From assembly GCA_020633325.1 (NCBI GenBank), contig JACKDX010000001.1, positions 1,522,179 through 1,586,178 on the forward strand: 64,000 nucleotides of DNA. Direction: 5' to 3'. Below are positions 1-16,358 of the stretch, one piece after another. Within the stretch, counting starts at the first letter, position 1. Each line of letters starts with the position of its first letter. The translations under genes were made by a program, and so were the position numbers. The stretch is from Myxococcales bacterium (GTDB taxonomy: Bacteria; Myxococcota_A; Polyangia; Polyangiales; GCA-016699535). The notes below the pieces were generated by a model, which did not search any database, was not told the origin of the DNA, and saw only the letters and a program-made list of their open reading frames with translations.

Positions 1-824
1 TCGGGGCAATGTGCACCCGCATTGCAGGCGTAGGTGCAGACCTTTGGTCCAGCGCCAGGTATGGGCTCGCACAGGCCATCATCGAGGTCTGACACGCCAC
101 AGTCGCTATCTATTGAGCAGGGTTTGGGGACATCCCCGGTCAAATCCAGCACCGCACGACACGTCGTTAGGGGCTCGGCCACCCCGCAGAAGATCTTGCC
201 TGTGACGCCCGAGAGGGTCGTGCGGGCAAGGGCACTGCTGTAGGGTTTAGAACACTCCAGATCTGCATCCTTTAGGCAATGGCCGCCGAGTTGGGTGACG
301 GGGCCGCCTTCGGGGCTAAACTGCATGGGGACGCACAAGAGGGTTTCTGCGCACTCGCTATCGGCTTTACAGGGAGAGCACGTCTGGACAGTGCCCCTGG
401 GGGTGCTGGTGCAGGTGTGGGTCGCGGGGTCACAGGCGTTGAGGCCGCAGGCAGTGGCCTCCGTCTGTATGGTGCAGGCCACGCAGGTGCCATCCTCGCA
501 TATACCCAGTCCCAGGTGCGCGCATTGTCCGTCGTCCGTGCAAGGTTGGCAGGTGTGGTCTGGGTCGCACACAGGGGCTTCGTTATTGGTGCACTCGGTG
601 TTCTTCAGACAGGCGACGCACTGGCCTAGGGGCTCATCACAGTAGGGCGCTTCTCGATCATCCGCGCAGTGCGCACTCTGCAAACACGCCACACATGTCT
701 TGAGGGTAAGGTGGCAATAGGGAAGCTCGCCTTCGCAACGCTTCCCGCACGGCCCGTCTTTATCGACGGTGCATGTCGTGATGAGCAGGAGCAGGATGCA
801 GGCGCTTGTGTAACGGGGTCTCAT
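1..824 (-). CDS. Cysteine-rich repeat lipoprotein, array copy D (3' end truncated by the window edge)
   Basis: ATG at 824-822 overlaps the stop of copy C by 1 nt (TGATG). The reading frame and sequence match copies B and C, with N-terminus MRPRYTSACILLLLITTC. It differs from copy C by a patch at 111-135 (25 vs 28 nt) and two synonymous changes (315, 327). Confidence 0.8.
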   Translation of the reverse strand, partial: MRPRYTSACILLLLITTCTVDKDGPCGKRCEGELPYCHLTLKTCVACLQSAHCADDREAPYCDEPLGQCVACLKNTECTNNEAPVCDPDHTCQPCTDDGQCAHLGLGICEDGTCVACTIQTEATACGLNACDPATHTCTSTPRGTVQTCSPCKADSECAETLLCVPMQFSPEGGPVTQLGGHCLKDADLECSKPYSSALARTTLSGVTGKIFCGVAEPLTTCRAVLDLTGDVPKPCSIDSDCGVSDLDDGLCEPIPGAGPKVCTYACNAGAHCP

Positions 825-1696
825 CAGAGCTTTCCGCAATAGCCGCCTCCGGCGGGGCAGGCAAAACCATCGGGGCAATGTGCACCCGCATTGCAGGCGT
901 AGGTGCAGACCTTTGGTCCAGCGCCAGGTATGGGCTCGCACAGGCCATCATCGAGGTCTGACACGCCACAGTCGCTATCCGTGCTACACGCTTTTGGTCC
1001 GGTGCCGCCGGTCAAATCCAGCACCGCACGACACGTCGTCAGGGGCTCGGCCACCCCGCAGAAGATCTTGCCTGTGACGCCCGAGAGGGTCGTGCGGGCA
1101 AGGGCACTGCTGTAGGGGTTAGAACACTCCAGATCTGCATCCTTTAGGCAATGGCCGCCGAGTTGGGTGACGGGGCCGCCTTCGGGACTAAACTGCATAG
1201 GGACGCACAAGAGGGTTTCTGCGCACTCGCTATCGGCTTTACAGGGAGAGCACGTCTGGACAGTGCCCCTGGGGGTGCTGGTGCAGGTGTGGGTCGCGGG
1301 GTCACAGGCGTTGAGGCCGCAGGCAGTGGCCTCCGTCTGTATGGTGCAGGCCACGCAGGTGCCATCCTCGCATATACCCAGTCCCAGGTGCGCGCATTGT
1401 CCGTCGTCCGTGCAAGGTTGGCAGGTGTGGTCTGGGTCGCACACAGGGGCTTCGTTATTGGTGCACTCGGTGTTCTTCAGACAGGCGACGCACTGGCCTA
1501 GGGGCTCATCACAGTAGGGCGCTTCTCGATCATCCGCGCAGTGCGCACTCTGCAAACACGCCACACATGTCTTGAGGGTAAGGTGGCAATAGGGAAGCTC
1601 GCCTTCGCAACGCTTCCCGCACGGCCCGTCTTTATCGACGGTGCATGTCGTGATGAGCAGGAGCAGGATGCAGGCGCTTGTGTAACGGGGTCTCAT
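824..1696 (-). CDS. Cysteine-rich repeat lipoprotein, array copy C (290 aa)
   Basis: ORF 824..1813 trimmed to the internal ATG at 1696, which overlaps the upstream stop by 1 nt. The signal peptide MRPRYTSACILLLLITTC ends in a lipobox-like Cys. I count 38 Cys, arranged in C-x2-C-x5-C-x7-8-C modules of about 23-24 aa (TCVACLQSAHCADDREAPYC, QCVACLKNTECTNNEAPVC, TCQPCTDDGQCAHLGLGIC). Confidence 0.82.
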   Translation of the reverse strand: MRPRYTSACILLLLITTCTVDKDGPCGKRCEGELPYCHLTLKTCVACLQSAHCADDREAPYCDEPLGQCVACLKNTECTNNEAPVCDPDHTCQPCTDDGQCAHLGLGICEDGTCVACTIQTEATACGLNACDPATHTCTSTPRGTVQTCSPCKADSECAETLLCVPMQFSPEGGPVTQLGGHCLKDADLECSNPYSSALARTTLSGVTGKIFCGVAEPLTTCRAVLDLTGGTGPKACSTDSDCGVSDLDDGLCEPIPGAGPKVCTYACNAGAHCPDGFACPAGGGYCGKL

Positions 1697-2640
1697 CAGA
1701 GCTTTCCGCAATAGCCGCCTCCGGCGGGGCAGGCAAAACCATCGGGGCAATGTGCACCCGCATTGCAGGCGTAGGTGCAGACCTTTGGTCCAGCGCCAGG
1801 TATGGGCTCGCACAGGCCATCATCGAGGTCTGACACGCCACAGTCGCTATCCGTGCTACACGCTTTTGGTCCGGTGCCGCCGGTCAAATCCAGCACCGCA
1901 CGACACGTCGTCAGGGGCTCGGCCACCCCGCAGAAGATCTTGCCTGTGACGCCCGAGAGGGTCGTGCGGGCAAGGGCACTGCTGTAGGGGTTAGAACACT
2001 CCAGATCTGCATCCTTTAGGCAATGGCCGCCGAGTTGGGTGACGGGGCCGCCTTCGGGACTAAACTGCATAGGGACGCACAAGAGGGTTTCTGCGCACTC
2101 GCTATCGGCTTTACAGGGAGAGCACGTCTGGACAGTGCCCCTGGGGGTGCTGGTGCAGGTGTGGGTCGCGGGGTCACAGGCGTTGAGGCCGCAGGTAACA
2201 GCCTCAGTCTCGACCGTGCACTCAAGGCACGTGCCAGTCTCCGCATCGCAAACGGGCAGGCTGGCATCGGTGCATGCACACGGGACGCAGGCGTGAGAGA
2301 CGGCGTTACAGTAAGGGCGCTCGGGGATGTGGTCACAGTCCGCATCATGCTGACATGCGGCGCATACATGCAGCTCTGGGTCGCACACAGGGGCTTCGTT
2401 ATTGGTGCACTCGGTGTTCTTCAGACAGGCGACGCACTGGCCTAGGGGCTCATCACAGTAGGGCGCTTCTCGATCATCCGCGCAGTGCGCACTCTGCAAA
2501 CACGCCACACATGTCTTGAGGGTAAGGTGGCAATAGGGAAGCTCGCCTTCGCAACGCTTCCCGCACGGCCCGTCTTTATCGACGGTGCATGTCGTGATGA
2601 GCAGGAGCAGGATGCAGGCGCTTGTGTAACGGGGTCTCAT
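1696..2640 (-). CDS. Cysteine-rich repeat lipoprotein, array copy B (314 aa, variant central cassette with one extra module)
   Basis: ORF 1696..2694 trimmed to the ATG at 2640 (1-nt overlap with the copy A stop). It is identical to copy C except for cassette 2196-2374 (179 nt vs 107 nt), which encodes ELHVCAACQHDADCDHIPERPYCNAVSHACVPCACTDASLPVCDAETGTCLECTVETEAVT. Confidence 0.82.
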   Translation of the reverse strand: MRPRYTSACILLLLITTCTVDKDGPCGKRCEGELPYCHLTLKTCVACLQSAHCADDREAPYCDEPLGQCVACLKNTECTNNEAPVCDPELHVCAACQHDADCDHIPERPYCNAVSHACVPCACTDASLPVCDAETGTCLECTVETEAVTCGLNACDPATHTCTSTPRGTVQTCSPCKADSECAETLLCVPMQFSPEGGPVTQLGGHCLKDADLECSNPYSSALARTTLSGVTGKIFCGVAEPLTTCRAVLDLTGGTGPKACSTDSDCGVSDLDDGLCEPIPGAGPKVCTYACNAGAHCPDGFACPAGGGYCGKL

Positions 2641-3533
2641 CAGAGCTTTCCGCAATAGCCGCCTCCGGCGGGGCAGGCAAAACCATCGGGGCAATGTGCA
2701 CCCGCATTGCAGGCGTAGGTGCAGCCGCCGACGTTCGGGGTATTGCAGATGCCATCATCGAGGTCTGACACGCCACAGTCGCTATCCGTGCTACACGCTT
2801 TTGGTCCGGTGCCGCCGGTCAAATCCAGCACCGCACGACACGTCGTCAGGGGCTCGGCCACCCCGCAGAAGATCTTGCCTGTGACGCCCGAGAGGGTCGT
2901 GCGGGCAAGGGCACTGCTGTAGGGGTTTTCGCAACCGTCGTCTGTGGGCTTCTCGCTTAGGCAATGGCCGCCGAGTTGGGTGACGGGGCCGCCTTCGGGG
3001 CTAAACTGCATGGGGACGCACAAGAGGGTTTCTGCGCACTCGCTATCGGCTTTACAGGGAGAGCACGTCTGGACAGTGCCCCTGGGGGTGCTGGTGCAGG
3101 TGTGGGTCGCGGGGTCACAGGCGTTGAGGCCGCAGGCAGTGGCCTCCGTCTGTATGGTGCAGGCCACGCAGGTGCCATCCTCGCATATACCCAGTCCCAG
3201 GTGCGCGCATTGTCCGTCGTCCGTGCAAGGTTGGCAGGTGTGGTCTGGGTCGCACACAGGGGCTTCGTTATTGGTGCACTCGGTGTTCTTCAGACAGGCG
3301 ACGCACTGGCCTAGGGGCTCATCACAGTAGGGCGCTTCTCGATCATCCGCGCAGTGCGCACTCTGCAAACACGCCACACATGTCTTGAGGGTAAGGTGGC
3401 AATAGGGAAGCTCGCCTTCGCAACGCTTCCCGCACGGCCCGTCTTTGGGATCGTCCGAGGACGTGAAGCGACACGAACACAGTGCGGCCAACACCATCAC
3501 CAAAACCATGTTGCACTTATGCGAGCTCGGCAT
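2640..3533 (-). CDS. Cysteine-rich repeat lipoprotein, array copy A (297 aa, first gene of the array)
   Basis: ATG at 3533-3531 lies directly after the TAA (3536-3534) of the upstream PEGA gene. It has a distinct signal peptide, MPSSHKCNMVLVMVLAALCSC. The body matches copies C and D except for patches 2725-2750 and 2928-2956. Confidence 0.82.
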   Translation of the reverse strand: MPSSHKCNMVLVMVLAALCSCRFTSSDDPKDGPCGKRCEGELPYCHLTLKTCVACLQSAHCADDREAPYCDEPLGQCVACLKNTECTNNEAPVCDPDHTCQPCTDDGQCAHLGLGICEDGTCVACTIQTEATACGLNACDPATHTCTSTPRGTVQTCSPCKADSECAETLLCVPMQFSPEGGPVTQLGGHCLSEKPTDDGCENPYSSALARTTLSGVTGKIFCGVAEPLTTCRAVLDLTGGTGPKACSTDSDCGVSDLDDGICNTPNVGGCTYACNAGAHCPDGFACPAGGGYCGKL

Positions 3534-4571
3534 TTAAAACTCCCCCGTAATTTTCAATCCATAATGATGCGCCTGTGGCCGGATGTCTGGCTCGATTGGA
3601 AGCGGCTTGGCCAGCAAGAAAAACAATGCGCCTCCCAGGCTCGCGACGCCAGCGCCAAGGGCAAGATAGGCACGGTAATCCATATTTCCGCGAGCGTCGC
3701 ATAGACCGCTGTCATCGACATCCCCGCTGCACTGCCCGTCGTCCACCGCCGTCCGAACGAAGGAGGTGATGCCCCAGGCGGCAGGCAGCAAGAAGCCCCC
3801 CGCAATGACGTAATTCCATGGTGAGGGGGATGAGGCAGAGCGGTCCTGCGAGTCACTGCCCGATGCACCCCAAGGTTTGAGGTGTACGGTCATGCTGTAG
3901 CGATGCGAGTCGGTGGAGGCATCCACCACGCGCCCCTCGGCTCGGTAGCCCTGCATTTCGACACGTACTCGGTGTCGTCCGGGAAGCAGCTTTCCTTCCC
4001 AGGGCACATCCCCCACTGCGCGGCCATCCACAAGCACGGACGCGCCCACCGGTGTGCCATCCACCCTGAGCGATAAATCGGCCTGAACGGCCAAAAGCGC
4101 ATCAAAGGCGTGGTCGAGGGCGGTCGCTGTTGCGCGTGACAAATCGCCTGTGCCAATCTCCGCGGCACCTTCGGCGTATGCGCCGTGCGCATCGTAGAGG
4201 CCCACGGAGAAGTTGTGTGGCCTGGCTTGGCCCGCCTCATCGGCGCGCGTCCATAGTCGGTTTCTGATCAACAACGCGGCTCCAAGCTCGGTAAGAAGCC
4301 GTTTGACACACTCGCCGCGTTCACACGGCTCAGTCTTGTCTTTTCTTGTGCGTGCCGTTTCAGCGGGAATAACACGATAGCCCCGCTTCCTGAGCGTGTC
4401 CTTGATCGATTGCTCAATGGTGGCGAGATCTTTGGGCTCGACGGGATGTTCTGAGCGCAACGGAAACAGCGCTGCTATTTTGTCCTGTGCCCGGGCTAAA
4501 GGAGCGTCGCTTGTCCCCATTCCCCAAAGCGCCATCGTCAACGCGGCAATCCATAATCGGTGTGTGAGCAT
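3534..4571 (-). CDS. PEGA-domain membrane protein (secreted N-terminal part, C-terminal hydrophobic segments)
   Basis: Signal peptide MLTHRLWIAALTMALWGMGTSDAPLARA. PEGA-like segment LRVDGTPVGASVLVDGRAVGDVPWEGKLLPGRHRVRVEMQGY. Hydrophobic C-terminal stretches (VIAGGFLLPAAWGI, LALGAGVASLGGALFFLLA). Its stop abuts the start of array copy A. Confidence 0.75.
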   Translation of the reverse strand: MLTHRLWIAALTMALWGMGTSDAPLARAQDKIAALFPLRSEHPVEPKDLATIEQSIKDTLRKRGYRVIPAETARTRKDKTEPCERGECVKRLLTELGAALLIRNRLWTRADEAGQARPHNFSVGLYDAHGAYAEGAAEIGTGDLSRATATALDHAFDALLAVQADLSLRVDGTPVGASVLVDGRAVGDVPWEGKLLPGRHRVRVEMQGYRAEGRVVDASTDSHRYSMTVHLKPWGASGSDSQDRSASSPSPWNYVIAGGFLLPAAWGITSFVRTAVDDGQCSGDVDDSGLCDARGNMDYRAYLALGAGVASLGGALFFLLAKPLPIEPDIRPQAHHYGLKITGEF

Positions 4572-4580
4572 ATCGTTTTC

Positions 4581-6290
4581 CTAGTTTCGCATAAGAAATC
4601 CAAATGAAAATCCGTGCGCGCTGACTTGTGTGCTGGCCGCGACCTGGGAACTATCGCCCATCACTTCGCGCAAGAGATACGTGACAGGTATTCCCACCAA
4701 TGGTAGCGAGGTCAACAGAACCATATCACCGAGCCCGGAGTTTATCTTTTCGTGAAAGCACTGCCCGCTCTGGGTGCCCCTGACGGTGCACTCTGACGGC
4801 ACGAGCGCCGCAATTGTCCCTAATGCTGCGCCGGTGAGACCGATCCCCCCAGCCAGCCATGCCCACCACGGTACGCCAGGCTGGGCAGGCAGCCAAAAAT
4901 GCCACGACGCGCTGAGCGAGAGTGCGCCCAGGCCGCCAAACAGCCAATGCCAGCCCCGTGTCCCGCCCTCGCCCGAGGCGTCGACATAGTGCTGGCGCAG
5001 GATCCAACCCGTGCCGAGGCCCGCCACTCCCAAACCGGCCAGCCCAGCGCCAAGCCATATAGGGCCTATGTCATCGTTCTTCTCCACTTCGGACGGCATA
5101 TCGAGCGAAGCGGGATGCCAGGGCTTGGCCTCGATGGGCCGGGCCGAGCTCAAATCGACGGACCGCTCACTGATCAGCTCGTTGATGGCCGTGCTTGCGG
5201 CATCCCAGGCGAAGCCATCGCCCTTCGGGGTGAGGCGCAGCCAGACTGAGGCTACGATTTGGTTGCGCGCCGGGACGAAACGGTCGATGCGCACCCGCCG
5301 CTCGCCCAGGGGAGCGACGACAAAGACCTCGCTTGCGTTGGCCGCATCGGCGAGTTTGTGAAGGTCCGCGGTCAAACGCGTGCTCATGATGCCCGGTGTG
5401 GCGTAATGGAGGCCGAGCTCACCATCGTCGGTGGAGAAGGCGCGATCGAAGACGCTGTCGATGACGACGCGCAAAGAATCGGCGCCCAAATGGACGCGGT
5501 GCACTCGACTCGCGCCCGACACGGGACACTCAAGTTGCGTCCAGTAGGAGCCGCCGGGCAACGGGCCACTTTGAAAGGGCGTCTGTCCGTAGCGCCGGCC
5601 GTTGAGAAAGACCGCACAGTTTGACTCGGTGCTGTTGATGGACAACGTGCCGTGCTTTTGCGCGTGCAAGTCGCTGTCCGCCTTCATGATCAACGACACC
5701 ACCTCTGGGGGATGAAGATGCGTGCTAGGTCGAGCATCCGGCACGAGACGTCGGCACTTGAGCGCGTAGCGGTATGCCTCATCGATCTTGCCGTCGTAAT
5801 GAAGGGCCCTTACCTCAAGCAAACAAATGTCAAATATGCGGGCTGCGTCTTCGTCGCGACGGTTGGTGCCATCGAGCAGCGTGTCGAGCGGGTTGAGGCA
5901 GGCTTCGACCGTTTGCTGCGTGCGTTTGGCTTGGCCGTCCACAATGTAGTTCAAGGCGCCGTCCCAACATTGCTGGAGGGTGTGACGCTGTTTGTCGTCC
6001 ATCTGAAACATGGGCCGGGAGAAGTTGTTTTCAAACCAACTTGTGGCCTCGCGCCCGGTGTAGACCGGAAAGCCAATCGCCGTCATCGTGTCTTCAAGCG
6101 AGCGCGTCGCGCCTACGGCATCTTCGCGCGCTTGCGGAGATCCGGTAGCCATCACCAGTAGCCACCTGGGGGAAGAATCGCCGGCCATGGCGGAAAGGCT
6201 CGTGCCCATGACGGTCAAAAACACCGCATACCCCCGCCAATGCCTCAATGGATGCCGCCACACCGAGGGCGAAGGTAGCAAACAATACAC
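4581..6290 (-). CDS. Large membrane-anchored protein with a PEGA-like domain; function unknown
   Basis: 569-aa ORF. Hydrophobic N-terminus (YAVFLTVMGTSLSAMA). PEGA-like LSINSTESNCAVFLNGRRYGQTPFQSGPLPGGSYWTQL. Several C-terminal hydrophobic helices (IWLGAGLAGLGVAGLGTGW, WWAWLAGGIGLTGAALGTIAAL). A 9-nt gap separates it from the next gene. Confidence 0.7.
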   Translation of the reverse strand: MYCLLPSPSVWRHPLRHWRGYAVFLTVMGTSLSAMAGDSSPRWLLVMATGSPQAREDAVGATRSLEDTMTAIGFPVYTGREATSWFENNFSRPMFQMDDKQRHTLQQCWDGALNYIVDGQAKRTQQTVEACLNPLDTLLDGTNRRDEDAARIFDICLLEVRALHYDGKIDEAYRYALKCRRLVPDARPSTHLHPPEVVSLIMKADSDLHAQKHGTLSINSTESNCAVFLNGRRYGQTPFQSGPLPGGSYWTQLECPVSGASRVHRVHLGADSLRVVIDSVFDRAFSTDDGELGLHYATPGIMSTRLTADLHKLADAANASEVFVVAPLGERRVRIDRFVPARNQIVASVWLRLTPKGDGFAWDAASTAINELISERSVDLSSARPIEAKPWHPASLDMPSEVEKNDDIGPIWLGAGLAGLGVAGLGTGWILRQHYVDASGEGGTRGWHWLFGGLGALSLSASWHFWLPAQPGVPWWAWLAGGIGLTGAALGTIAALVPSECTVRGTQSGQCFHEKINSGLGDMVLLTSLPLVGIPVTYLLREVMGDSSQVAASTQVSAHGFSFGFLMRN

Positions 6291-6437
6291 AGGTCTCCAA
6301 GGATTCTATGCGCCTCGTACACCAAGCGGGTGGGGCGAGGATGTGTCTCGAGTGCTTCTTTGCTCTCTCGCCTAGAGGAAGTGTGCGACGTCAGTCACCC
6401 CGCTAAGGCGTTTCACGCGCGCGGTGAGCGGTGAACG

Positions 6438-6932
6438 CTAGGGGCCCCCGCCACCACCGCCCCCAGCACCGCCTCCCGAGCCACCCCCGGAGCCGCCTCC
6501 TGATCCAGCGCCGACTGAGGGGCCGCCACCTGATCCGCTACCCGTCGAGGGGCCGCTTCCGGTCGACGGACCGGCACCCTGCCCGGTGCCCACTGAGGGG
6601 CTACCGATGCCGGACTGGCTGCCCGTTCCAGGCGTATGCACCGAGGTTTCCGGTTGATTGGTCCGGCCGCGGGGCCCTTTGGCGGAGCTACCGGTCGCAG
6701 CACCGTTGCCGCCTGCAGCGCCGGCTGCTCCGGCATTGCTCCTTTTGTCGGGAGTGGGTTCTTCGGCGATTTCGTCGAGGGAACTCAACTCCGCCTCGTC
6801 TTGCGCCTCCGCCACTTGCTCGGTCGTTGCGGGTTTGTAACCCTCGTAGGGATGCGAATGAGCGCACCCCACGAGCGCCACGCCGCCAAATCCTACCCCA
6901 AGCCACACATAGGGATGCCATCGAGACGTCAT
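6438..6932 (-). CDS. Lipoprotein with a long Gly/Ser/Pro-rich low-complexity C-terminal tail
   Basis: MTSRWHPYVWLGVGFGGVALVGC (lipobox LVGC). The tail reads ...GSGPSTGSGSGGGPSVGAGSGGGSGGGSGGGAGGGGGGGP. An alternative upstream ATG lies at 6959. Confidence 0.6.
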   Translation of the reverse strand: MTSRWHPYVWLGVGFGGVALVGCAHSHPYEGYKPATTEQVAEAQDEAELSSLDEIAEEPTPDKRSNAGAAGAAGGNGAATGSSAKGPRGRTNQPETSVHTPGTGSQSGIGSPSVGTGQGAGPSTGSGPSTGSGSGGGPSVGAGSGGGSGGGSGGGAGGGGGGGP

Positions 6933-7203
6933 ACAAACCCTCCACTTCGTTACGGCCATCGATGCACAACACGTGCCAGGCGCAACCCACTGAAGTTATT
7001 ATTAAAAACGCGTGCTATTTCACCCCAGTGTGGCAAACTGCCACAGTTACGCCTGAATCTCGCGCGCGGAAGGGTAGCTTCTGTAGGAGCCTTAAGGCCG
7101 TTGCTGAAAGCCGAATATGAGGTAGCCCCTGCCTTTCAGCGCAACATTCGGCGGCGCTGTAAGAGCAGGCGGCCAACCGTGCCGCGTCTCGAGCCTACCA
7201 CGC

Positions 7204-9201
7204 TCATGCCACGGCCACCCGGTCTCTGCCCGCATGTTTGGCGCGATAGAGCGCATCGTCTGCGGCTTGAATCAACGTCTCGGCACTCATCCCGTGTATC
7301 GGATAAGTCGCAAGACCGATGGATGCGGTGACGCGACCGACGGAGCGGCCGATGTGCTGTAGATCTAGGGTGTGGAGTGCGGCTCTGAGTTGCTCGGCCT
7401 TCTGTTGCGCATGCATAACGCCCGAGCCAGGCAGAAGGATGAGAAACTCTTCGCCTCCCATGCGACTGGCAATGTCGCTGCCGCGGGTCTGTGCGTTCAA
7501 GATACCGCCAAGGCTACGGAGCACATGATCGCCCGCAGCGTGCCCGAACCTGTCGTTGAAGTCTTTGAAGTGATCCACGTCCAACATGAGCACGCTAAGC
7601 TCGGACTGCTCGCGTTCTGCGCGACGTATCTCGCGGTCGAGCGTCTCTTCGGTGTAGCGGCGGTTGAAAAGGCCCGTAAGCGGATCGCGGATGGACTGGT
7701 TTCTGAGCGTTTCGCGTAACCGCAGGTTGGCGAGCGCCATGCTGAATTGCTCGCCCACAACGGTGGCGCGGCGCACGATCTCGGGAGGCATTTGGCCGCG
7801 GGACACGAGGTGAAAAATCCCCAAGAGTTCGCCGTGAGCCACGAGAGGCAAACACAGGCTGCTGTAACCGCTGATCGGCTGGGTGATGTGCTTACACAGC
7901 ACATGCACGCCGCCTGCTTCATACATGTGGGGCTGCCCTCGCCTGAGCGACCAGCATTCCTCAGGCCGAAAGGACAGACTGCTCGAAAGTGTTGGGGCAT
8001 CTCCCCACTGGACTTGGCTCTCGACGATGTTCTTCGATGCATGAATGAGGCACATGGCTCCCGACTGTTCTTGGAAGAAATGCGGGCCGAGCTGCGTCAT
8101 CACCTCGTACGATTCCTCGACCGTGCGGCAGGCCTGAAGCATCTCACCCATTTCAAGCAGAAAGGTGATTTCCCTCACACGGGTCTCTTCAGTGCGCCTA
8201 CGCTCCGTGACATCTCTAGAGATGCCGATGAGACCAATCACTTCTTTGTGAGGGCCGCGATAGGGCGCTTTCATCGACAAGTATACGCGCGTCACACCAT
8301 CGACGCGCACGGTCTCCTCAACTGTCTGGGGCTCTGCGGAATGCATGACTGTGAAGTCTTGTGCCATCACGGCGCGCGCTGTTTCGGCGGACATCAATTC
8401 GCGGTCGTCCTTGCCAATGATGTCCATGGGCGCTTTGCCGAGCGCTTGGGCGCCGGCGGAGTTGATCAAGAGGTACTTTCCTTGAAGATCCTTGATGTAA
8501 ATAGTGTCGCTGGTTCCGCCGATGATGGCCTCAAGCAGATTTTTCTTTTCGTTCAGGTCATGCTGCACCAACGCCCGCCATCGAATCTCGCTGTTGAGAC
8601 GAGCAAAGGCGACAAGCAATAATACGATGCTGGCCAGGGTGCCGAATCCAAGCGTCAGCGTGGTACGCTCGGACTGCTGGGCGGTCCTTAGGCTGTGCGT
8701 TTTCAGCCGGTGCGTTTCGATGTTGCTCATTTCTCGGATCAGCGTGCGGATTTGCGACGTCAGGGTCAGTGCCTGAATCGGGACCGTGATATCTTCGGTG
8801 GGATGTTCATACACACTACGCAAATGAGCTTTGAACGTCGCAAGGCGGGCATCGAGCTTGGCTTCAAGAGCATCCAATGCGGTTTTGTGTACGGAGTCGT
8901 GCCGCAGCAGCACGCGTACCCTTTTGAAGGACTGGGAGATATCCCGAAGGGCGGGTCCGTGGGTGCGCAAGAAGCGGGGATCGTGGCTCAAAGCAAAGCC
9001 GCGAAGAGAGCTTTCCGCTTCGGCGACACCGGTCAGGATGCCCTCAAGCTCGTTGATCACGGATAGCGTGTGCACCACGCGCCGAGCGTCGGTCGTATGT
9101 TTGCGGATGTTCTTATAGGAAAACACACCAATCCCAAGCAAGGCGAGGATGGCAATGCTAAGGCCCACGATTGGAATGACGCGCTCATTAGGAAATCTCA
9201 T
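7204..9201 (-). CDS. Sensor diguanylate cyclase (TM, CHASE3-like, TM, PAS, GAF-like, GGDEF)
   Basis: CHASE3-like VVHTLSVINELEGILTGVAEAESSLRGFALSHDPRFL between two hydrophobic segments. PAS-like DTIYIKDLQGKYLLINSA. GGDEF domain with RDPLTGLFNRRY and the active-site motif GGEEF (RMGGEEFLILLPG). Start is ATG 9201 or GTG 9210. Confidence 0.88.
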   Translation of the reverse strand: MRFPNERVIPIVGLSIAILALLGIGVFSYKNIRKHTTDARRVVHTLSVINELEGILTGVAEAESSLRGFALSHDPRFLRTHGPALRDISQSFKRVRVLLRHDSVHKTALDALEAKLDARLATFKAHLRSVYEHPTEDITVPIQALTLTSQIRTLIREMSNIETHRLKTHSLRTAQQSERTTLTLGFGTLASIVLLLVAFARLNSEIRWRALVQHDLNEKKNLLEAIIGGTSDTIYIKDLQGKYLLINSAGAQALGKAPMDIIGKDDRELMSAETARAVMAQDFTVMHSAEPQTVEETVRVDGVTRVYLSMKAPYRGPHKEVIGLIGISRDVTERRRTEETRVREITFLLEMGEMLQACRTVEESYEVMTQLGPHFFQEQSGAMCLIHASKNIVESQVQWGDAPTLSSSLSFRPEECWSLRRGQPHMYEAGGVHVLCKHITQPISGYSSLCLPLVAHGELLGIFHLVSRGQMPPEIVRRATVVGEQFSMALANLRLRETLRNQSIRDPLTGLFNRRYTEETLDREIRRAEREQSELSVLMLDVDHFKDFNDRFGHAAGDHVLRSLGGILNAQTRGSDIASRMGGEEFLILLPGSGVMHAQQKAEQLRAALHTLDLQHIGRSVGRVTASIGLATYPIHGMSAETLIQAADDALYRAKHAGRDRVAVA

Positions 9202-9350
9202 GGTGCACACCTAGTCTACTACAGATGCGCATGAAGGCCGCATGCGGCCAAACCGATGTGATTATGAGGCTCTTGGTATCGAGCCTCGGGTGGGATACCC
9301 AAGTCATTTCAGGTGTAGTAAGGGTGAAATACACCAAAAAGGAGTATCCT

Positions 9351-10661
9351 ATGATGTTATTTGGATATCGACTGCTCGGGTGCACGCTAAGCGTCCTTTT
9401 GTGTTTCGCAGGTGCGTGCTCGGTGGCCACGGACGAGCCGGTCTCTTCGGAAGATGCTCAGGCGCAGCTTCAGGGCCATCTTGCAGTGGTGGCGCAGGTC
9501 CTTCGGCCTGATGCCCGCACCTTTTTTCCATCGTTTACCGGCCACACATACGAAGGCGTCAAGGGTCCTGGCCTCACCGCGCGGTATTACCTGGCTCAAG
9601 GAGCCGTGTTTGCGGTGACGGCGATTTCGGTCATCGACCCAAATCAATCATCCTCAGTGAGCTGCGATGCGGCCGATGTGAATGCGGGGTGCACCACGAT
9701 TGGGTGGATATACGCGATCCCCATGTTCGATGATCGCGAAGCGGCGTTGAGCTCACCTTACGCCGGCGGCTTTTGGCTGCGTGCCGAAGACGTCGTGCTG
9801 GTTCAAGTGGGCAAGGCGTTGGGGGACGTCTTCGATGGGGACCCGACTGTTGTCACCGTCAAAGAGGCTCACGCGCTCATCAGCGGCATAACCGTATTTT
9901 CAGCCACTCAGGGCGAGCCATTGGGCACCAACGCCGCGCCCCAGGGCGGCGAGATGTATAGCCCGCCCAAGGCTGACGGGAGCATGTCACGGGTGGACCA
10001 CAACGACATGTTTTCTCTCACAGTGGGCGCTTCGATCGATCCCCACGACAGCACTGCAAGTTGGGTGGCCCGCGGCACCGACGGGTACATGCTCAAGACC
10101 CATTCCGAGGTGTGTCTAGGGGCTAGTACACCCCAATGCGCCATGTGGACCGGCACCGACGGTGCGGTTATCGGCGCAGGCATATCGGGACAGGCCAAGG
10201 TGGGCGGTGCCTTAGTCATGGTTGCGCTATTAGTGGTGCTCTACGCCTATATTTCTACGCAGCGGCGGCCCGACACCATCTCGGTCGCCACAGGCGTGCC
10301 TCCGATATTGACGCCTGCTCTTGCAGTCACGCTGGCTCCCGCGGCGCCGATTTCCCCGCCGCTGCCGACGGTAGCTCCCCCGCCACCGCCACCTACGGAT
10401 CTGGGCATCAAGGCCTGCTGGCCCCATGAAGATAAAATGTGTCGCTACACCTTCTATCAAAACATTTGGTACTGCTTATGCTTGCGGCCCGAGCAGTTCT
10501 GGACCGAGGGAAGTCAGCAGTGCGGCAGACTAGATTTTTGGCCAGGCACCTGGGCGGATGGCTGCGCGCTACACGCCCCCGCGGGCACGGCCACCGTGGG
10601 GGACGCTTGCTGGTTCCCCCAGGAATGCCCGGGCGGCAAGAGATTTCACAATAGTCTCTGA
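9351..10661 (+). CDS. Lipoprotein with a C-proximal TM helix, a Pro-rich linker and a Cys/Trp-rich terminal domain; function unknown
   Basis: GGAG at 9341-9344 precedes ATG 9351. MMLFGYRLLGCTLSVLLCFAGAC (lipobox). TM GGALVMVALLVVLYAYI. Linker PPLPTVAPPPPPP. Tail KACWPHEDKMCRYTFYQNIWYCLCL...DACWFPQECPGG. Confidence 0.65.
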   Translation: MMLFGYRLLGCTLSVLLCFAGACSVATDEPVSSEDAQAQLQGHLAVVAQVLRPDARTFFPSFTGHTYEGVKGPGLTARYYLAQGAVFAVTAISVIDPNQSSSVSCDAADVNAGCTTIGWIYAIPMFDDREAALSSPYAGGFWLRAEDVVLVQVGKALGDVFDGDPTVVTVKEAHALISGITVFSATQGEPLGTNAAPQGGEMYSPPKADGSMSRVDHNDMFSLTVGASIDPHDSTASWVARGTDGYMLKTHSEVCLGASTPQCAMWTGTDGAVIGAGISGQAKVGGALVMVALLVVLYAYISTQRRPDTISVATGVPPILTPALAVTLAPAAPISPPLPTVAPPPPPPTDLGIKACWPHEDKMCRYTFYQNIWYCLCLRPEQFWTEGSQQCGRLDFWPGTWADGCALHAPAGTATVGDACWFPQECPGGKRFHNSL

Positions 10662-10791
10662 GCTTTGCTCAATGTGTTATTGAAACAACCTCTACAACGG
10701 CACAAAGTTCGGCCCGCGGCCGAGTGTGCCTTGGGATCACGCAAGGACTATGCTAGCCTTCGCGCGCAAGTGAAACACGAAAGGACACGAC

Positions 10792-11457
10792 ATGGGACTT
10801 CGCATCAACGACACGGCTCCTAACTTCACGACGGACTCCACGGCAGGAAAACTGTCACTGTATGACTGGATGGGCGATAGCTACGCCATCGTGTTCTCGC
10901 ATCCCAAGGATTTTACGCCGGTATGCACGACCGAGTTCGGGTCGGTCGCTCAGCTTGCGCCGGAGTTTGCCAAACGGAATACCAAGGTGCTGGGCGTGTC
11001 GGTGGACAGCGTCGAAGACCATCAGAAGTGGAAGCGGGATATCGCTCAGGTGGGGGGTGCTGCGGCTGATTTCCCCATCATCGATGACACCTCGCTCAAT
11101 GTGGCGAAGCTTTATGACATGCTTCCGGCGGATGCCTATCTTCCGGACGGGCGGACGCCGGCGCACAGTGCCACGGTGAGGACTGTCTTCATCATCGGGC
11201 CTGACAAGAAGATTCGTCTCACCATGTCTTATCCGATGTCAGTAGGGCGAAATTTTGCCGAGATCCTACGCGCCCTCGATGCCGTTCAGGCGACCGACGG
11301 TGTGCCATTGGCGACACCTGCCAACTGGGTTCCTGGGGAAGACGTGATCGTGGGACTTGCCCTCGACGATAAGCAAGCGCAGGAAAAGTATGGCACGTTG
11401 ACCATCAAGCTGCCTTACTTGCGCCTCGTCAAAGATCCGAGAGCGAACCGGGCCTAA
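10792..11457 (+). CDS. 1-Cys peroxiredoxin (Prx6-type)
   Basis: FSHPKDFTPVCTTE peroxidatic-Cys motif. Length of about 220 aa and overall Prx6-like sequence (VLGVSVDSVEDHQKW, ATPANWVPGEDVIV). Confidence 0.9.
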   Translation: MGLRINDTAPNFTTDSTAGKLSLYDWMGDSYAIVFSHPKDFTPVCTTEFGSVAQLAPEFAKRNTKVLGVSVDSVEDHQKWKRDIAQVGGAAADFPIIDDTSLNVAKLYDMLPADAYLPDGRTPAHSATVRTVFIIGPDKKIRLTMSYPMSVGRNFAEILRALDAVQATDGVPLATPANWVPGEDVIVGLALDDKQAQEKYGTLTIKLPYLRLVKDPRANRA

Positions 11458-13389: not shown

Positions 13390-14067
13390 TTACTTCGCAG
13401 GGGCGGGGCCAGGGCCTGTGGTGGGCCCAATCTTTCCTGGAGCGACGCGGCGTCCCTGAACCGGCACCGGTTGTTTTGAAGCGCCCGGGCTTCTTCGCGG
13501 AGGAGGCAGCATGATTCCCCCCGGCGTTGCCGGCTTGGGCCGAGCGCAGCGTCCGCACTGTCCGGCTTTGGCCTGGCAACAGCCTTCTTTTGCGCAACAC
13601 TTCTTGCCGAAGTGCTTCATGTTGCCGAGGGACATGAGAAGGAGTGCTTGCTCTTTGGGTGATAGCTCAGCAGCGATGCGATTCCATTCGCGCTCTTTGA
13701 GCGAGTGAAGCTGCTTGAACGCTGCGCGCTGCTTGTTTACCTGGGCACGATAGGCTTTTTCATCGGTGCTCTTGCTGTCCAAGAGCGCGCGCGTCTGATG
13801 GCGGGCGTCATTCATTTGTGTGCGATACTTCAGATGCTCGGCATCGAAGGACGCCAGGCTTTTTTCGAGCTTCGCTGCGCGTGTTTCGTCGAGGCCCACT
13901 TGCTCACGCAGCATTTTGCCTCGCATTTCTTTAATATGTGCGAGCTTTTGCTCAGGAGTCCATTCCGGACGTGCATCAGAAGGCGGCGTCTCGGCCAGAC
14001 CCACCACGGGCGTCAAAGCGAGAGCGCCCAGTGACAGCAGAAAACCGAGCGTTGTTTTTCGTATCAT
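13390..14067 (-). CDS. Periplasmic Spy/CpxP-like helical protein with a Cys-rich, basic C-terminal tail
   Basis: Signal peptide MIRKTTLGFLLSLGALALTPVVGLA. Helical repeats with LSPKEQ / TPEQK motifs typical of the CpxP/Spy/ZraP family. Tail KKCCAKEGCCQAKAGQCGRCARPK. GAGG lies 7 nt upstream of ATG 14067 (alternative ATG at 14073). Confidence 0.5.
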   Translation of the reverse strand: MIRKTTLGFLLSLGALALTPVVGLAETPPSDARPEWTPEQKLAHIKEMRGKMLREQVGLDETRAAKLEKSLASFDAEHLKYRTQMNDARHQTRALLDSKSTDEKAYRAQVNKQRAAFKQLHSLKEREWNRIAAELSPKEQALLLMSLGNMKHFGKKCCAKEGCCQAKAGQCGRCARPKPATPGGIMLPPPRRSPGASKQPVPVQGRRVAPGKIGPTTGPGPAPAK

Positions 14068-14132
14068 ATGCATACCTCATTCCCTTTCTCTAGTGTGAAT
14101 GCCTCCGGGGAGGCAAATGTTAACGTGGAATC

Positions 14133-14552
14133 TTACTCAAGCTCCGAATAACTCGCATAAAGCACCTCTACTTCGTCGGTCTCCAAGGCATGCAAAAGAT
14201 CCAGCCCGAGGGCATCGTCATCGTCGAGCCAGTCTTCGGTGGTGGTTTGCACCAAATCGGCGGCAACGGAGAGAGCGGTCATGTCATGTGCGTGAGGGGG
14301 GGCGGGCTCTAAAACCGTCGCCACTGCCGCCGCATCGGGCGCGGCATTGCTGGCGTAATAACATAGCGTTGCCATCCCCGCCATGGCGCCCAGGCCTGTA
14401 AGGAGATAGCCAGGGAGTGCAAAGCGAGAACGTCGCGGAACCACTGCCGAGAAGCGGGCCATGGCCGAAAGCGCGTCTGTATCGGGGACGAGCGCCGTCT
14501 TGTCGAACTGTTCAGCGAGCCAGCGTTCGGATGGGCTTGGTGATGGGCACAT
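14133..14552 (-). CDS. Putative single-pass membrane anti-sigma factor
   Basis: Strong SD (AGGAGGA) lies 5-6 nt upstream of ATG 14552. The start overlaps the sigma gene 3' end by 41 nt. One TM (LPGYLLTGLGAMAGMATLCYY) and an acidic C-terminus. The call rests on position after an ECF sigma; no zinc-binding anti-sigma motif was seen. Confidence 0.45.
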   Translation of the reverse strand: MCPSPSPSERWLAEQFDKTALVPDTDALSAMARFSAVVPRRSRFALPGYLLTGLGAMAGMATLCYYASNAAPDAAAVATVLEPAPPHAHDMTALSVAADLVQTTTEDWLDDDDALGLDLLHALETDEVEVLYASYSELE

Positions 14553-15105
14553 AACTTTCCTCCTGTTCGGTCGTGGCAAGCATCTGGGCTATACGTTTGG
14601 TGGCCTTGTGGATTAACACGCGCACCGACGCTTCAGAGCTGCTCAATGCGTGGGCGATTTCTGCATGGCTTAGGTTTACATCGAGACGGAGCAATAGCGC
14701 CTGGCGCTGTTTGGCCGGAAGGCTGGCGATAGCCCCGCGCAGTTGGGCGGCCATAAGCTTCGCCTCATAGCAATGCGCCGGATCCGGTTCGGGCTCTGAC
14801 AGCGTTTGTGACATCGCTTCGCGCCCCCGGCGACGAAACGCCGAGCGATGAATGCTATGAGATTTCTTGACCACGATGCCCGCCAAGTAGGCCTTGAACG
14901 ACGCTTGCGGTTGAAAACGGCGGAGTTTTTGATAGGCGATGATGAGGACTTCTTGAACAATGTCGTCCGCAAGTGCGCGATCGGCCGCATGGCGCCCGGC
15001 GATGCGATACAATAACGGCAAATGCGGCTCGATGAGCTGCCGATAGGCGAGGCCATCGCCCGCAATGGCGCGCGCGAGTAAGCTGGCTTCTTGGGGATGA
15101 CTCAT
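14512..15105 (-). CDS. ECF-type RNA polymerase sigma factor (sigma-70 family group 4)
   Basis: Region 2 (ADRALADDIVQEVLIIAYQKLRRF) and region 4 HTH (LPAKQRQALLLRLDVNLSHAEIAHALSSSEASVRVLIHKATKRI). ATG at 15105 (MSHPQEASLL). Confidence 0.88.
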   Translation of the reverse strand: MSHPQEASLLARAIAGDGLAYRQLIEPHLPLLYRIAGRHAADRALADDIVQEVLIIAYQKLRRFQPQASFKAYLAGIVVKKSHSIHRSAFRRRGREAMSQTLSEPEPDPAHCYEAKLMAAQLRGAIASLPAKQRQALLLRLDVNLSHAEIAHALSSSEASVRVLIHKATKRIAQMLATTEQEESYVPITKPIRTLAR

Positions 15106-15191
15106 GGTTATCCGTTGGACTACCCCAAAGAAACAAGTATTCACACTCTCTATATGCCGCCTGCGGATGAAAAATTAACGCTCGAGACAAA

Positions 15192-16358
15192 TTATAGGAG
15201 GGAGACCAACCAACTCGCTCCCACAAATGCCCCAGCGGCGGCCCCAATGGATGAGAATATCACCACAAGTAGTACACGTGTGACGCGGTTTTGATACCAG
15301 TCTTTGAGAGTGCTGACATACTGAATATTTTCGCAGTCTTCGATAGTGGGGCGTCTGAGGGCCGCTTCAATCGGGCCGGTCACCATACCGACGCCGATGG
15401 CGGGATTGAGCGTGGTCAAGGGGGAAGAAAAAAAAGCCGCCACCACAGTCCATGCACGCGCCCCAGCACCGATAGTCATTAACGCTGCTCCTACGCTGGT
15501 CGGCAGGCACCAGGCCAAAAGCATGGCCCCAAGCGTTTGCCCTGCATGCTTCTGGTAGCCCCAGATGAAACTGGCCAGCACGAGGGCAGGAATAAGCCAT
15601 GCGAGCACCGTGGCCCATATGGACGGGGGCGGGATCACCTGCAGCGCCTTGCGGTCGACCGATTCGCCGAGATGGTTCACCATGCCTTCGACGTGTCCTG
15701 CGCCCACAACGGCCACGATGGTTTGGCCGGGAGCTTCCTGAATCGTGCTCATCATGTATTGGTCACGTTCATCGATCAATGGCACCTTAACTTCTGGCAT
15801 CGTCCGGGCAAACTCCGCCATGGCATCGTTGAGCACATCGCGGTCCTTTAGTTTTTCGATTTCTTCTTCGCTCACATCCTTGGCGGAGAAAAAGGCTCCC
15901 GTCATCACTGAGATCAGTTGAGATTTTTTCCAAAGAGAGAGGTTGGCCCAGGTGCGTTTCAGTGTGGCTTGGATATCGCGATCCGCGAGCACCAGTTCAA
16001 GGCCATGTTCGTGGGCTTTCTCAATAGCTGCGATCAGCTCCGCGCCGGGCCGCACGCCCAACAGATCGCCGAGACGCCGCTGATAGGCTGATAGAACGAG
16101 ATTGGCAATCAGAAACAACACCTTCTTCTCGCGAATGATTTGGAAGAGATCAAGACGACGCCATCGGTGGGTGTCGATCAACGTTTGGTAGCGCAAATCG
16201 TCCAGCTCCACGCACACCGTATCGGGCATCACCGTGTCGATCACGTGCTTGACCTCTTCGACGCTGCGCTTGGAGACGTGCGCCGTGCCGACGATATAAA
16301 TGGTCTTATCGCGATACGAGAGCCTTCTGACAGTCTGGGGAAATTCGTGTGATGACAT
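15192..16358 (-). CDS. TraB/PrgY (GumN-like) family protein with C-terminal TM helices
   Basis: KTIYIVGTAHVSKRSVEEVKHVIDTVMPDTVCVELD and IVAVVGAGHVEGM motifs. ORF 15192..16853 trimmed to ATG 16358 (MSSHEFPQ), because its upstream extension overlaps greA on the other strand. Confidence 0.8.
   Translation of the reverse strand: MSSHEFPQTVRRLSYRDKTIYIVGTAHVSKRSVEEVKHVIDTVMPDTVCVELDDLRYQTLIDTHRWRRLDLFQIIREKKVLFLIANLVLSAYQRRLGDLLGVRPGAELIAAIEKAHEHGLELVLADRDIQATLKRTWANLSLWKKSQLISVMTGAFFSAKDVSEEEIEKLKDRDVLNDAMAEFARTMPEVKVPLIDERDQYMMSTIQEAPGQTIVAVVGAGHVEGMVNHLGESVDRKALQVIPPPSIWATVLAWLIPALVLASFIWGYQKHAGQTLGAMLLAWCLPTSVGAALMTIGAGARAWTVVAAFFSSPLTTLNPAIGVGMVTGPIEAALRRPTIEDCENIQYVSTLKDWYQNRVTRVLLVVIFSSIGAAAGAFVGASWLVSLL

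Follow-up and report, generated by a model that had tools for sequence, protein, structure and literature searches.

A tandem array of coupled genes for cysteine-rich putative lipoproteins in a Myxococcales bacterium: mosaic gene conversion and a candidate envelope recognition repertoire

What does a bacterium gain from five almost identical genes for cysteine-rich putative lipoproteins, each fused to the next by a single shared nucleotide? The question is raised by an array at one edge of a 64,000-nucleotide stretch of DNA from a Myxococcales bacterium (GCA_020633325.1, contig JACKDX010000001.1, positions 1,522,179 to 1,586,178), which is called the window below. With a probability of roughly 0.6, a figure that covers both the description of the locus and its function, we read the array as operon-coupled and gene-converted, encoding a co-expressed repertoire of envelope proteins for recognition or adhesion. 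The structural and evolutionary description of the locus and its family is offered with high confidence on its own, and the recognition function of the lipoproteins is proposed tentatively.

The array lies on the minus strand at window positions 1-3533. According to the list of open reading frames (ORFs), the minus-strand sequence and an alignment of the copies, the lead gene, copy A, spans 2640-3533 (297 aa) and is followed by copy B at 1696-2640 (314 aa), copy C at 824-1696 (290 aa) and copy D at 1-824, which has 274 codons up to the window edge and a full protein of 289 aa (P0001, H6714_06975). A fifth copy, E, lies beyond window position 1 (P0014, H6714_06970; 313 aa, long stalk), and the array thus has five copies in total, with the proteins H6714_06970 to H6714_06990, encoded on one 1.86-Mb contig, falling into the same two 90%-identity clusters. 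An earlier note, made from the letters of the window, had reported four consecutive minus-strand genes at these positions and had taken that number as a minimum where the array runs off the window, and both statements were borne out. The three junctions all read CTCTGATGAGACC (CTC-TGA-TG-AGA), with one A common to the TGA stop and the ATG start, giving TGATG overlaps on the minus strand at 2640-2644 (A/B), 1696-1700 (B/C) and 824-828 (C/D); the identical 1-nt overlap from which the same note had derived translational coupling is therefore real at each of them. Unit spacings of 869, 872, 941 and 944 nt, at 99-100% identity, were returned by a direct-repeat finder. The minus-strand sequence and a promoter and terminator scan of the array showed no promoter-like site, invertible element or spacer between the copies. 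A terminator-like hairpin, GGGTGCACATTGCCC followed by a T-rich tail, occurs once per unit on the minus strand (873-887, 1745-1759 and 2689-2703) within the conserved coding sequence for ...AGAHCPDGF..., and it is probably due to chance, since the number of such sites in the region was not above that in shuffled controls.

The copies encode proteins of one plan. Copy A begins with the signal peptide MPSSHKCNMVLVMVLAALCSC, whose lipobox by inspection is L-C-S-C, and copy B with the internal-type signal peptide MRPRYTSACILLLLITTC; the box of copies B-E is I-T-T-C, with Thr at position -1 and outside the consensus [LVI][ASTVI][GAS]C. The boxes of homologs, also read by inspection, are mostly canonical (L-G-S-C, L-S-A-C, V-I-A-C, L-S-S-C, L-V-G-C and V-T-A-C). 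The alignment of the copies agreed with the signal peptides quoted previously, and the claim that each copy has a lipobox-like cysteine stands for copy A, with most homologs canonical, and has to be qualified for the atypical box of B-E. Export and lipidation are accordingly treated here as predictions from the signal sequences. The stalk begins 8 residues past the anchor Cys and consists of repeats with the spacing C-x2-C-x5-C-x6-8-C-x4-6 and a period of 22-25 aa, which keeps the cysteine modules of the earlier description and refines its values of x7-8 and 23-24 aa. About 13% of the residues are Cys, and CxxC motifs are present. Copy C contains 38 Cys in its 290-aa precursor and 36 after the putative lipidated Cys18, so that the number 38 given before for the mature protein was a correct count of the precursor. 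After the anchor there are 36 Cys in A, 36 in C and 40 in B; all are even numbers, consistent with full disulfide pairing, which we infer from the even count of invariant Cys and by analogy with the stalk of the protein TraA. The window proteins end in ...CPAGGGYCGKL, without a hydrophobic or basic tail.

The C-terminal head, some 170 aa long, is marked in the family by about 20 Cys that are invariant or nearly so and by the motif C-G-x-N-[SA]-C-[DN]-P-A-T. AlphaFold2 modelled the whole protein from a 14-sequence alignment with a predicted local distance difference test (pLDDT) score of 78.6, the stalk exceeding 90, and the head alone from a 90-sequence alignment with a pLDDT of 95.8 and a predicted template modelling score (pTM) of 0.89, as a beta-rich fold. 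A sequence-profile search of PDB with the lipoprotein gave no match at E<=1. In Foldseek searches, the best PDB match of the full-length model was the Draxin Cys-rich domain (E=0.05, 57 columns), which was not significant, and the best matches of the head model in PDB (E 2.9) and in BFVD (pithovirus 'transmembrane proteins', E 0.15) were treated as noise. Judged by its predicted model, the head has no detectable fold relative in PDB or BFVD and appears to be a new domain.

These proteins belong to a large family. A profile search of 1.84 billion representative proteins gave 3587 matches at E<=1e-3 and 635 at E<=1e-30, the latter being 50%-identity clusters, and the four window copies match the family profile at E 1e-110 to 1e-125 (copy A over positions 1-308, E=2.5e-125). 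Most matches are 290-450 aa long and align as far as the profile's C-terminus. Longer members invariably carry the head at their C-terminus, preceded by 2 to more than 13 stalk repeats, and in homologs a Gly/Ser/Asp-rich linker often follows the anchor; the design predicted for the family is therefore anchor–linker–stalk–head. The family occurs in Myxococcota and Bradymonadales; its named sources are Persicimonas caeni and Microvenator marinus (both Bradymonadales), Sandaracinus and metagenome-assembled genomes (MAGs) of Myxococcota. No relevant paper emerged from a literature search that covered the family, its accessions and Cys-rich proteins of Bradymonadales.

No Pfam model matched the window lipoproteins at E<=1, and the sole result of the NCBIfam and PADLOC scans was a weak match to the repeat region of TraA, the outer-membrane-exchange receptor of Myxococcus xanthus (NF033759), at 19.8 and 22.9 bits against a cut-off of 750 and at model positions 314-437 only, which is the Cys-repeat region. 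The E value of this repeat match is 3e-5 for copy C and reaches 1.5e-11 in family members. Membership of the window proteins in TraA itself was considered and rejected on these scores, which concern the repeat region only. The repeat model TIGR04201 was defined from the TraA stalk, in which the cysteines are, according to the authors of the TraA work, probably oxidised to disulfides (PMC3325183). This repeat model gave no match at E<=1 in the window proteins, and in the homologs P0222 (24.0 bits) and P0139 (22.2 bits) it fell just below its 25-bit cut-off. The link from the window stalk to TIGR04201 is thus a weak and indirect one, running through P0222 and P0139 and through the stalk's own match to the TraA repeat region; even so, it gives a named relative to a module that the earlier note could not assign to any family. 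Precomputed tables list PF27011.1 for P0172, P0093 and P0218 and for several beta-helix proteins that have only the stalk region in common with them, from which this accession would model the Cys repeat rather than the head. A Pfam scan of the listed proteins gave no match, and a literature search on the accession PF27011 found no mention.

Within the window, the copies are a mosaic. In an alignment of the four units they are 100% nucleotide-identical outside five cassettes: one is the signal peptide, another is a stalk module, and the remaining three are short loops. A perfect-identity tract of 203 nt is common to all four; B and C differ in one 179-column stalk block only and share an identical run of 500 nt, and A and C differ in three blocks besides the signal peptide. 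None of 2000 permutations of the difference positions reached runs as long as the 203-nt four-way and 500-nt B/C tracts. That B and C are identical outside one cassette had been noticed before and is correct for this pair; the array as a whole has five variable cassettes and not one. The stalk cassette is short in A, C and D (about 3144-3238, 1332-1426 and 460-554, approximate positions from the alignment) and long in B and E, the long form of B (approximately 2239..2405, minus, alignment columns 291-469) containing one extra Cys module (+72 nt). Copy A combines the short stalk with loop1 SEKPTDDGCEN, loop2 GGTGPKACSTD and loop3 ICNTPNVGGC; copy B has loop1 KDADLECSN, loop2 GGTGPKACSTD and loop3 LCEPIPGAGPKVC; copy C has the nucleotides of B except for the short form of the stalk cassette; and copy D has the short stalk with loop1 KDADLECSK and loop2 GDVPKPCSID. 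With three versions of loop1, two of loop2 and two of loop3 (LCEPIPGAGPKVC or ICNTPNVGGC), the combination differs from copy to copy.

The three loops fall between secondary-structure elements of the head model and match the indel and entropy hot spots of the whole family. Moreover, the loop3 version ICDTPNVGGC is also found in the homologs P0003, P0006 and P0007; P0004 and P0005 have a longer loop3 (LCRQISGLGTGTFC and LCQQISGSGINTVC), close in length to the LCEPIPGAGPKVC version, and over its long stalk cassette copy B shows 57% identity to the equivalent region of the distant homolog P0089. The alternative versions, which occur in distant homologs too, are old. Homogenisation of the window array is nearly complete, with four islands left besides the signal peptide.

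Arrays of this kind are a trait of the family. When the family profile was run against 60 loci, two or more adjacent copies were found in 16; a lone copy could be demonstrated, by flanks of 1.2 kb or more on either side of the gene, in five, so that arrays occur in 16 of the 21 resolvable loci; many short contigs stop exactly at the family gene, as expected of assemblies that break in repeats. An unrelated 7.5-Mb MAG chromosome (L001) carries a three-copy array joined by TGATG overlaps, in which the lead gene has a distinct signal peptide; the L001 proteins are 37% identical to those of the window. The TGATG junction recurs in L009, an ATGA overlap is found in L028, and the copies in other arrays are separated by spacers of 15-540 nt. 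The finished genome of the cultured Persicimonas caeni (L003, CP042468) carries a three-copy array, and further arrays lie on 12 metagenome contigs. The third full-length P. caeni member (L003:5469-6548), directly upstream of two annotated tandem copies, has a distinct signal peptide and is not among the called genes of the locus. Another array is seen in P0020 (717 aa, metagenomic), where a frameshift causes two tandem copies of the family gene to be read as one protein; each begins MPRPILHMFMMPLLLALLCGC, and the two have a near-identical stalk and a diverged head. The earlier note had envisaged that a common, well-characterised family of fixed copy number and constant cassettes might be found; instead, comparison of related genomes showed that copy number (1 to 5) and cassette content both vary.

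Inside the arrays, similarity between copies is highest in the stalk and lowest in the last ~90 residues. Identities in the stalk, the first part of the head and the last part of the head were 100%, 79% and 55% in L014; 96%, 61% and 42% in L009; 90%, 82% and 55% in P. caeni; and 97%, 99% and 82% in L001. Synonymous divergence (dS, synonymous substitutions per site) rises in the same direction: from 0 in the stalk to 0.62 further 3' and then saturation in L014, from 0.09 to 1.5 in L009, from 0.10 to 1.5 between copies 2 and 3 of P. caeni, and from 0.08 to 0.94 and then saturation in L028. The same gene pairs thus have a dS of 0-0.10 in the stalk and of 0.9 to saturated in the last 100 codons. 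Because dS shows the gradient as well, stronger purifying selection on the stalk is not a sufficient explanation, and it follows that gene conversion keeps the 5' part uniform and weakens in the 3' direction. The choice between recent duplication and gene conversion to which the near-identity of the copies had first led is in keeping with this result, as the clustered differences and the dS gradient uphold concerted evolution.

Would the simple need for more of one structural envelope protein produce the same array? Near-identical, coupled copies would multiply output, the ratio of nonsynonymous to synonymous rates (dN/dS) is below 1, and single-copy members exist (L018, L027, L030, L031, L034, L061 and L062); the cassette differences would then be neutral leftovers of gene conversion. 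Dosage amplification alone does not, however, lead one to expect heads that have diverged (down to 27-55% identity) while the stalk was homogenised, across many independent arrays, since diverged heads are not expected if an identical product were the goal. The variable islands also coincide with the hypervariable loops of the whole family, and they are discrete versions that other species possess as well. We regard dosage as unlikely to be the full explanation, while giving it real weight.

The sister assembly GCA_020633255.1 (H6715, L060) allowed the window array to be compared with a close relative. The 6,782 bp upstream of its array are 100% identical to window 3534-10315, and it carries the same five units at 6783-11319; the 26 mismatches and 18 gap openings between the two all lie within the array. 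Copy a of the sister has a B-type loop3 where window copy A has ICNTPNVGGC, and its copies c and d have an A-type loop1 where window copies C and D have KDADLECS, copy c also with two linked A-type synonymous markers. An identical 2-nt deletion in the loop1 cassette, GACGAC to GAC-, breaks the frame of both copy a and copy c (7300-7330 and 9145-9175); copy d has the same cassette intact. The shared deletion is either a frameshift spread by gene conversion or a systematic consensus error. After the last full copy, at L060:11317-11390, there is a 63-nt remnant of a sixth unit that contains the internal-type signal peptide only (MRPRYTSACLLLLLITTCTV); beyond it the sequence diverges until a stop is reached. 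The remnant gives the boundary of the unit that was duplicated and is followed by a convergent photolyase-like gene. A partial unit at the end of an array is what tandem duplication by unequal exchange usually leaves behind.

Since there are 0 differences in the 6.8-kb flank against three cassette swaps in the array, the locus might be hypervariable, with short loop cassettes of a disulfide-knotted head exchanged among co-expressed paralogs at such a pace that the cells of one clonal population carry different combinations. This would amount to a combinatorial surface-receptor repertoire for predatory Myxococcota and Bradymonadales with a dedicated PEGA partner system (described below), and we consider it rather improbable. 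It is very unlikely that the array or its mosaic is an artefact of collapsed or expanded repeats or of mixed strains in a metagenome assembly, even though the source is a MAG and the sister differs only inside the array, with frameshifts there, as where polishing reads place ambiguously. Both assemblies agree on five copies, on the order of long and short stalks and on the loop2 types; the same array design is found in L001, in the finished P. caeni genome and on the 12 metagenome contigs; and the junctions are precise and keep the frame. The array as such is therefore robust, and the assignment of loops to copies is provisional.

The repertoire reading, to which we now return, also takes in the genes upstream of copy A. 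A 345-aa PEGA-domain protein is encoded at 3534..4571 on the minus strand (Pfam PEGA, E=5e-9), directly upstream of copy A, which it abuts as TAAATG; it has a signal peptide and a C-terminal arrangement of hydrophobic segment, Cys loop and hydrophobic segment, and ends in ...GEF. Upstream of it, the first gene of the apparent operon, at 4581..6290 (minus), encodes a PEGA-domain membrane protein (569-aa ORF, 535 aa as called in L060; Pfam PEGA, E=3e-5) and ends 9 nt before the 345-aa gene. The order PEGA–PEGA–Cys-rich is conserved in a Sandaracinus MAG (L062; 529, 326 and 386 aa) and in L056 and L059, and in L040, L045, L048, L056, L058, L059 and L062 the gene immediately upstream of the Cys-rich one encodes a homolog of the 345-aa protein. 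The arrays of P. caeni and L001 are bracketed by a TPR-like protein of ~250 aa and a protein of ~500 aa, the latter related to the 569-aa window protein (E=5e-10). Proteins with the PF11617 'Cu-binding MopE' motif, lipoprotein-like in character, lie near or inside the PEGA/Cys-rich clusters of two unrelated loci, at L003:1934-4608 and L056:4653-6479 (E=1.6e-20 in L056). Defence-system models (PADLOC) gave no match to the array and neighbourhood proteins.

The array-associated membrane proteins have a C-terminal module in common, made of a hydrophobic segment, a two-Cys loop of ~25 aa, a second hydrophobic segment and a short tail (window 3534-4571 and 4581-6290; L001:8972-9760 and 13755-15284; L003:4638-5387 and 9329-10804). 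It is shared by otherwise different proteins at E 1e-9 to 1e-15. In five of the six, the tail ends in an alternating motif of beta-strand type whose last residue is Phe (...KITGEF, ...LSWHF, ...ATLRF, ...LELRF, ...VRWRF), reminiscent, as a sequence pattern, of the beta-signal of outer-membrane proteins; the tail of the 569-aa window protein differs (...FGFLMRN). Further upstream, at 6438-6959 (minus), a lipoprotein-like ORF of 173 aa (164 aa as called in L060) with the box L-V-G-C has a long Gly/Ser-rich tail ending in poly-Gly. It is kept in L060 and has the operon on one side and, on the other, the gene for a CHASE3-PAS-GGDEF diguanylate cyclase (7204-9210).

Considering the above, we propose a plausible model for the locus. 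One operon would encode two PEGA-domain membrane proteins and then five translationally coupled lipoprotein paralogs, each consisting, in order, of an N-terminal lipid anchor, a linker in many homologs, a stalk of ~23-aa Cys repeats and a disulfide-rich head of ~170 aa. The array would have arisen by unequal crossing-over; the sister assembly retains the 63-nt remnant of a sixth unit. Gene conversion homogenises it, most strongly in the 5' stalk part, and short islands (one stalk module and three head loops) escape as discrete versions that are combined differently from copy to copy. Because each copy has its own start codon and signal peptide, with no promoter-like or spacer sequence between copies, the five isoforms are most likely produced at the same time. 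The envelope would thereby display heads that differ slightly, on a stalk that stays constant, for recognition or adhesion, and the repertoire may act with the PEGA proteins to broaden binding, whether of prey, kin, matrix or phage-related targets.

Several observations weigh against this model. The window is a MAG, and its sole close comparison differs inside the array only, including the shared 2-nt frameshift; that pattern fits repeat-induced polishing error, from short reads placed ambiguously on a long-read consensus, as well as it fits a real and very recent exchange of cassettes within one population. The I-T-T-C lipobox of copies B-E is atypical for proteins supposed to be lipidated. 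The dN/dS values are below 1 in all regions (0.1-0.6), and no positive or diversifying selection on the head was demonstrated by them. The PEGA neighbourhood is recurrent and not universal, Microvenator having a lone copy without partners. Finally, all members from named sources are annotated only as 'hypothetical', and what is said here of function, localisation and expression is drawn from sequence.

Cysteine-rich proteins could instead serve as metal or redox buffers, with CxxC motifs that bind copper or zinc or act as thiol buffers. The ~13% Cys content would suit such a role, and the PF11617 'putative metal-binding (MopE)' proteins near the arrays of P. caeni and L056 point the same way, but no MopE-motif gene was seen next to the window array. 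The proteins carry a lipoprotein signal for export, their cysteines are even in number and invariant across the family, and the head model is compact, beta-rich and confidently folded. In addition, the repeats resemble the extracellular TraA stalk, whose cysteines are regarded by its authors as likely disulfide-oxidised (PMC3325183). Buffering is therefore judged very improbable.

Antigenic or phase variation, in which one copy is expressed and the others are donor cassettes as in Borrelia vls, Neisseria pilE/pilS, Mycoplasma vsp or the variant surface proteins (VSPs) of Giardia, has in its favour the cassette-like islands on an identical background and the apparent swapping of cassettes between two assemblies of the same population. 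It would require silent copies, whereas all five units are complete ORFs with start codon, signal peptide and stop. Overlaps of 1 nt link them to one another downstream of two further genes, without a promoter-like site, invertible element or spacer between them, and the organisms are free-living predators or soil bacteria with no adaptive-immune host. The Giardia analogy drawn in the earlier note was compositional only and is given up, as a start and signal peptide for each copy and the operon coupling argue for simultaneous expression; switching of this type is highly improbable. SitA-like polymorphic lipoprotein toxins for predation or kin discrimination, suggested by the N-terminal lipobox and variable C-terminal region and by the use of lipoprotein toxins in this lineage (PMC5562445, PMC8546572), are scarcely credible here, with no immunity-like gene between the overlapping copies or after the array (where the remnant and the convergent photolyase-like gene lie), a single conserved C-terminal family without assortment of toxin domains, and no matches to toxin or defence models in Pfam, NCBIfam and PADLOC. 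None of these alternatives explains the constant stalk and diverged heads, together with complete coupled genes, as well as a co-expressed repertoire does.

If our reading is correct, predatory and social lineages of deltaproteobacteria possess a large family of envelope lipoproteins, which this locus defines, with hundreds of 50%-identity clusters, a head domain that has no Pfam or NCBIfam name, and a recurrent arrangement in tandem, in which the stalk is homogenised, the heads have diverged, and the genes, often with translational coupling, lie beside those for PEGA membrane proteins. It would offer a clean natural case of region-specific concerted evolution in bacteria, and it would be a candidate system for recognition or adhesion in bacteria for which TraA is the main source of what is known of cell contact (prey and kin recognition). 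The three-copy array of Persicimonas caeni makes such a system accessible in a culturable organism.

The closest comparison is with TraA. Among the databases searched, the stalk repeats of the family match only the Cys-repeat region of TraA, and both would place a polymorphic recognition domain on a Cys-rich, presumably disulfide-bonded surface stalk in a social or predatory deltaproteobacterium (PMC3325183). Unlike TraA, the window proteins have no PA14-like domain (no Pfam match at E<=1) and no C-terminal MYXO-CTERM tag; their topology is inverted, with the lipid anchor N-terminal and the variable domain C-terminal, and their head is unrelated. Their genes form tandem arrays, whereas TraA is a single polymorphic locus. 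With Giardia VSPs, they share a high Cys content, CxxC motifs and a multigene family, but lack the C-terminal transmembrane helix and CRGKA tail, ending instead in ...GGGYCGKL, and no sequence or profile similarity to these proteins was found in Pfam, NCBIfam and PDB profile searches. Mycoplasma vsp/vlp and Borrelia vsp/vlp and vls resemble the window array as clustered lipoprotein paralogs with conserved 5' or signal regions, variable 3' parts and recombination between copies. Those systems switch by promoter inversion, by slipped-strand change or by a single expression site with silent cassettes, and serve evasion of host immunity. In contrast, the window copies are all complete and coupled in one operon, and they encode Cys-rich proteins of environmental organisms. 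SitA proteins have in common with them a lipoprotein signal, a variable C-terminal part, multiple copies and the same broad lineage, and differ in that the window array has one conserved head family and neither immunity genes nor toxin domains. Tandem, recombining families of surface lipoproteins are therefore already known as a kind of system. What appears distinct here, as far as sequence can tell, is a new head domain on a TraA-like Cys stalk in inverted topology, together with an obligate co-expression that the stop/start overlaps would impose, in environmental predators with PEGA proteins as probable partners.

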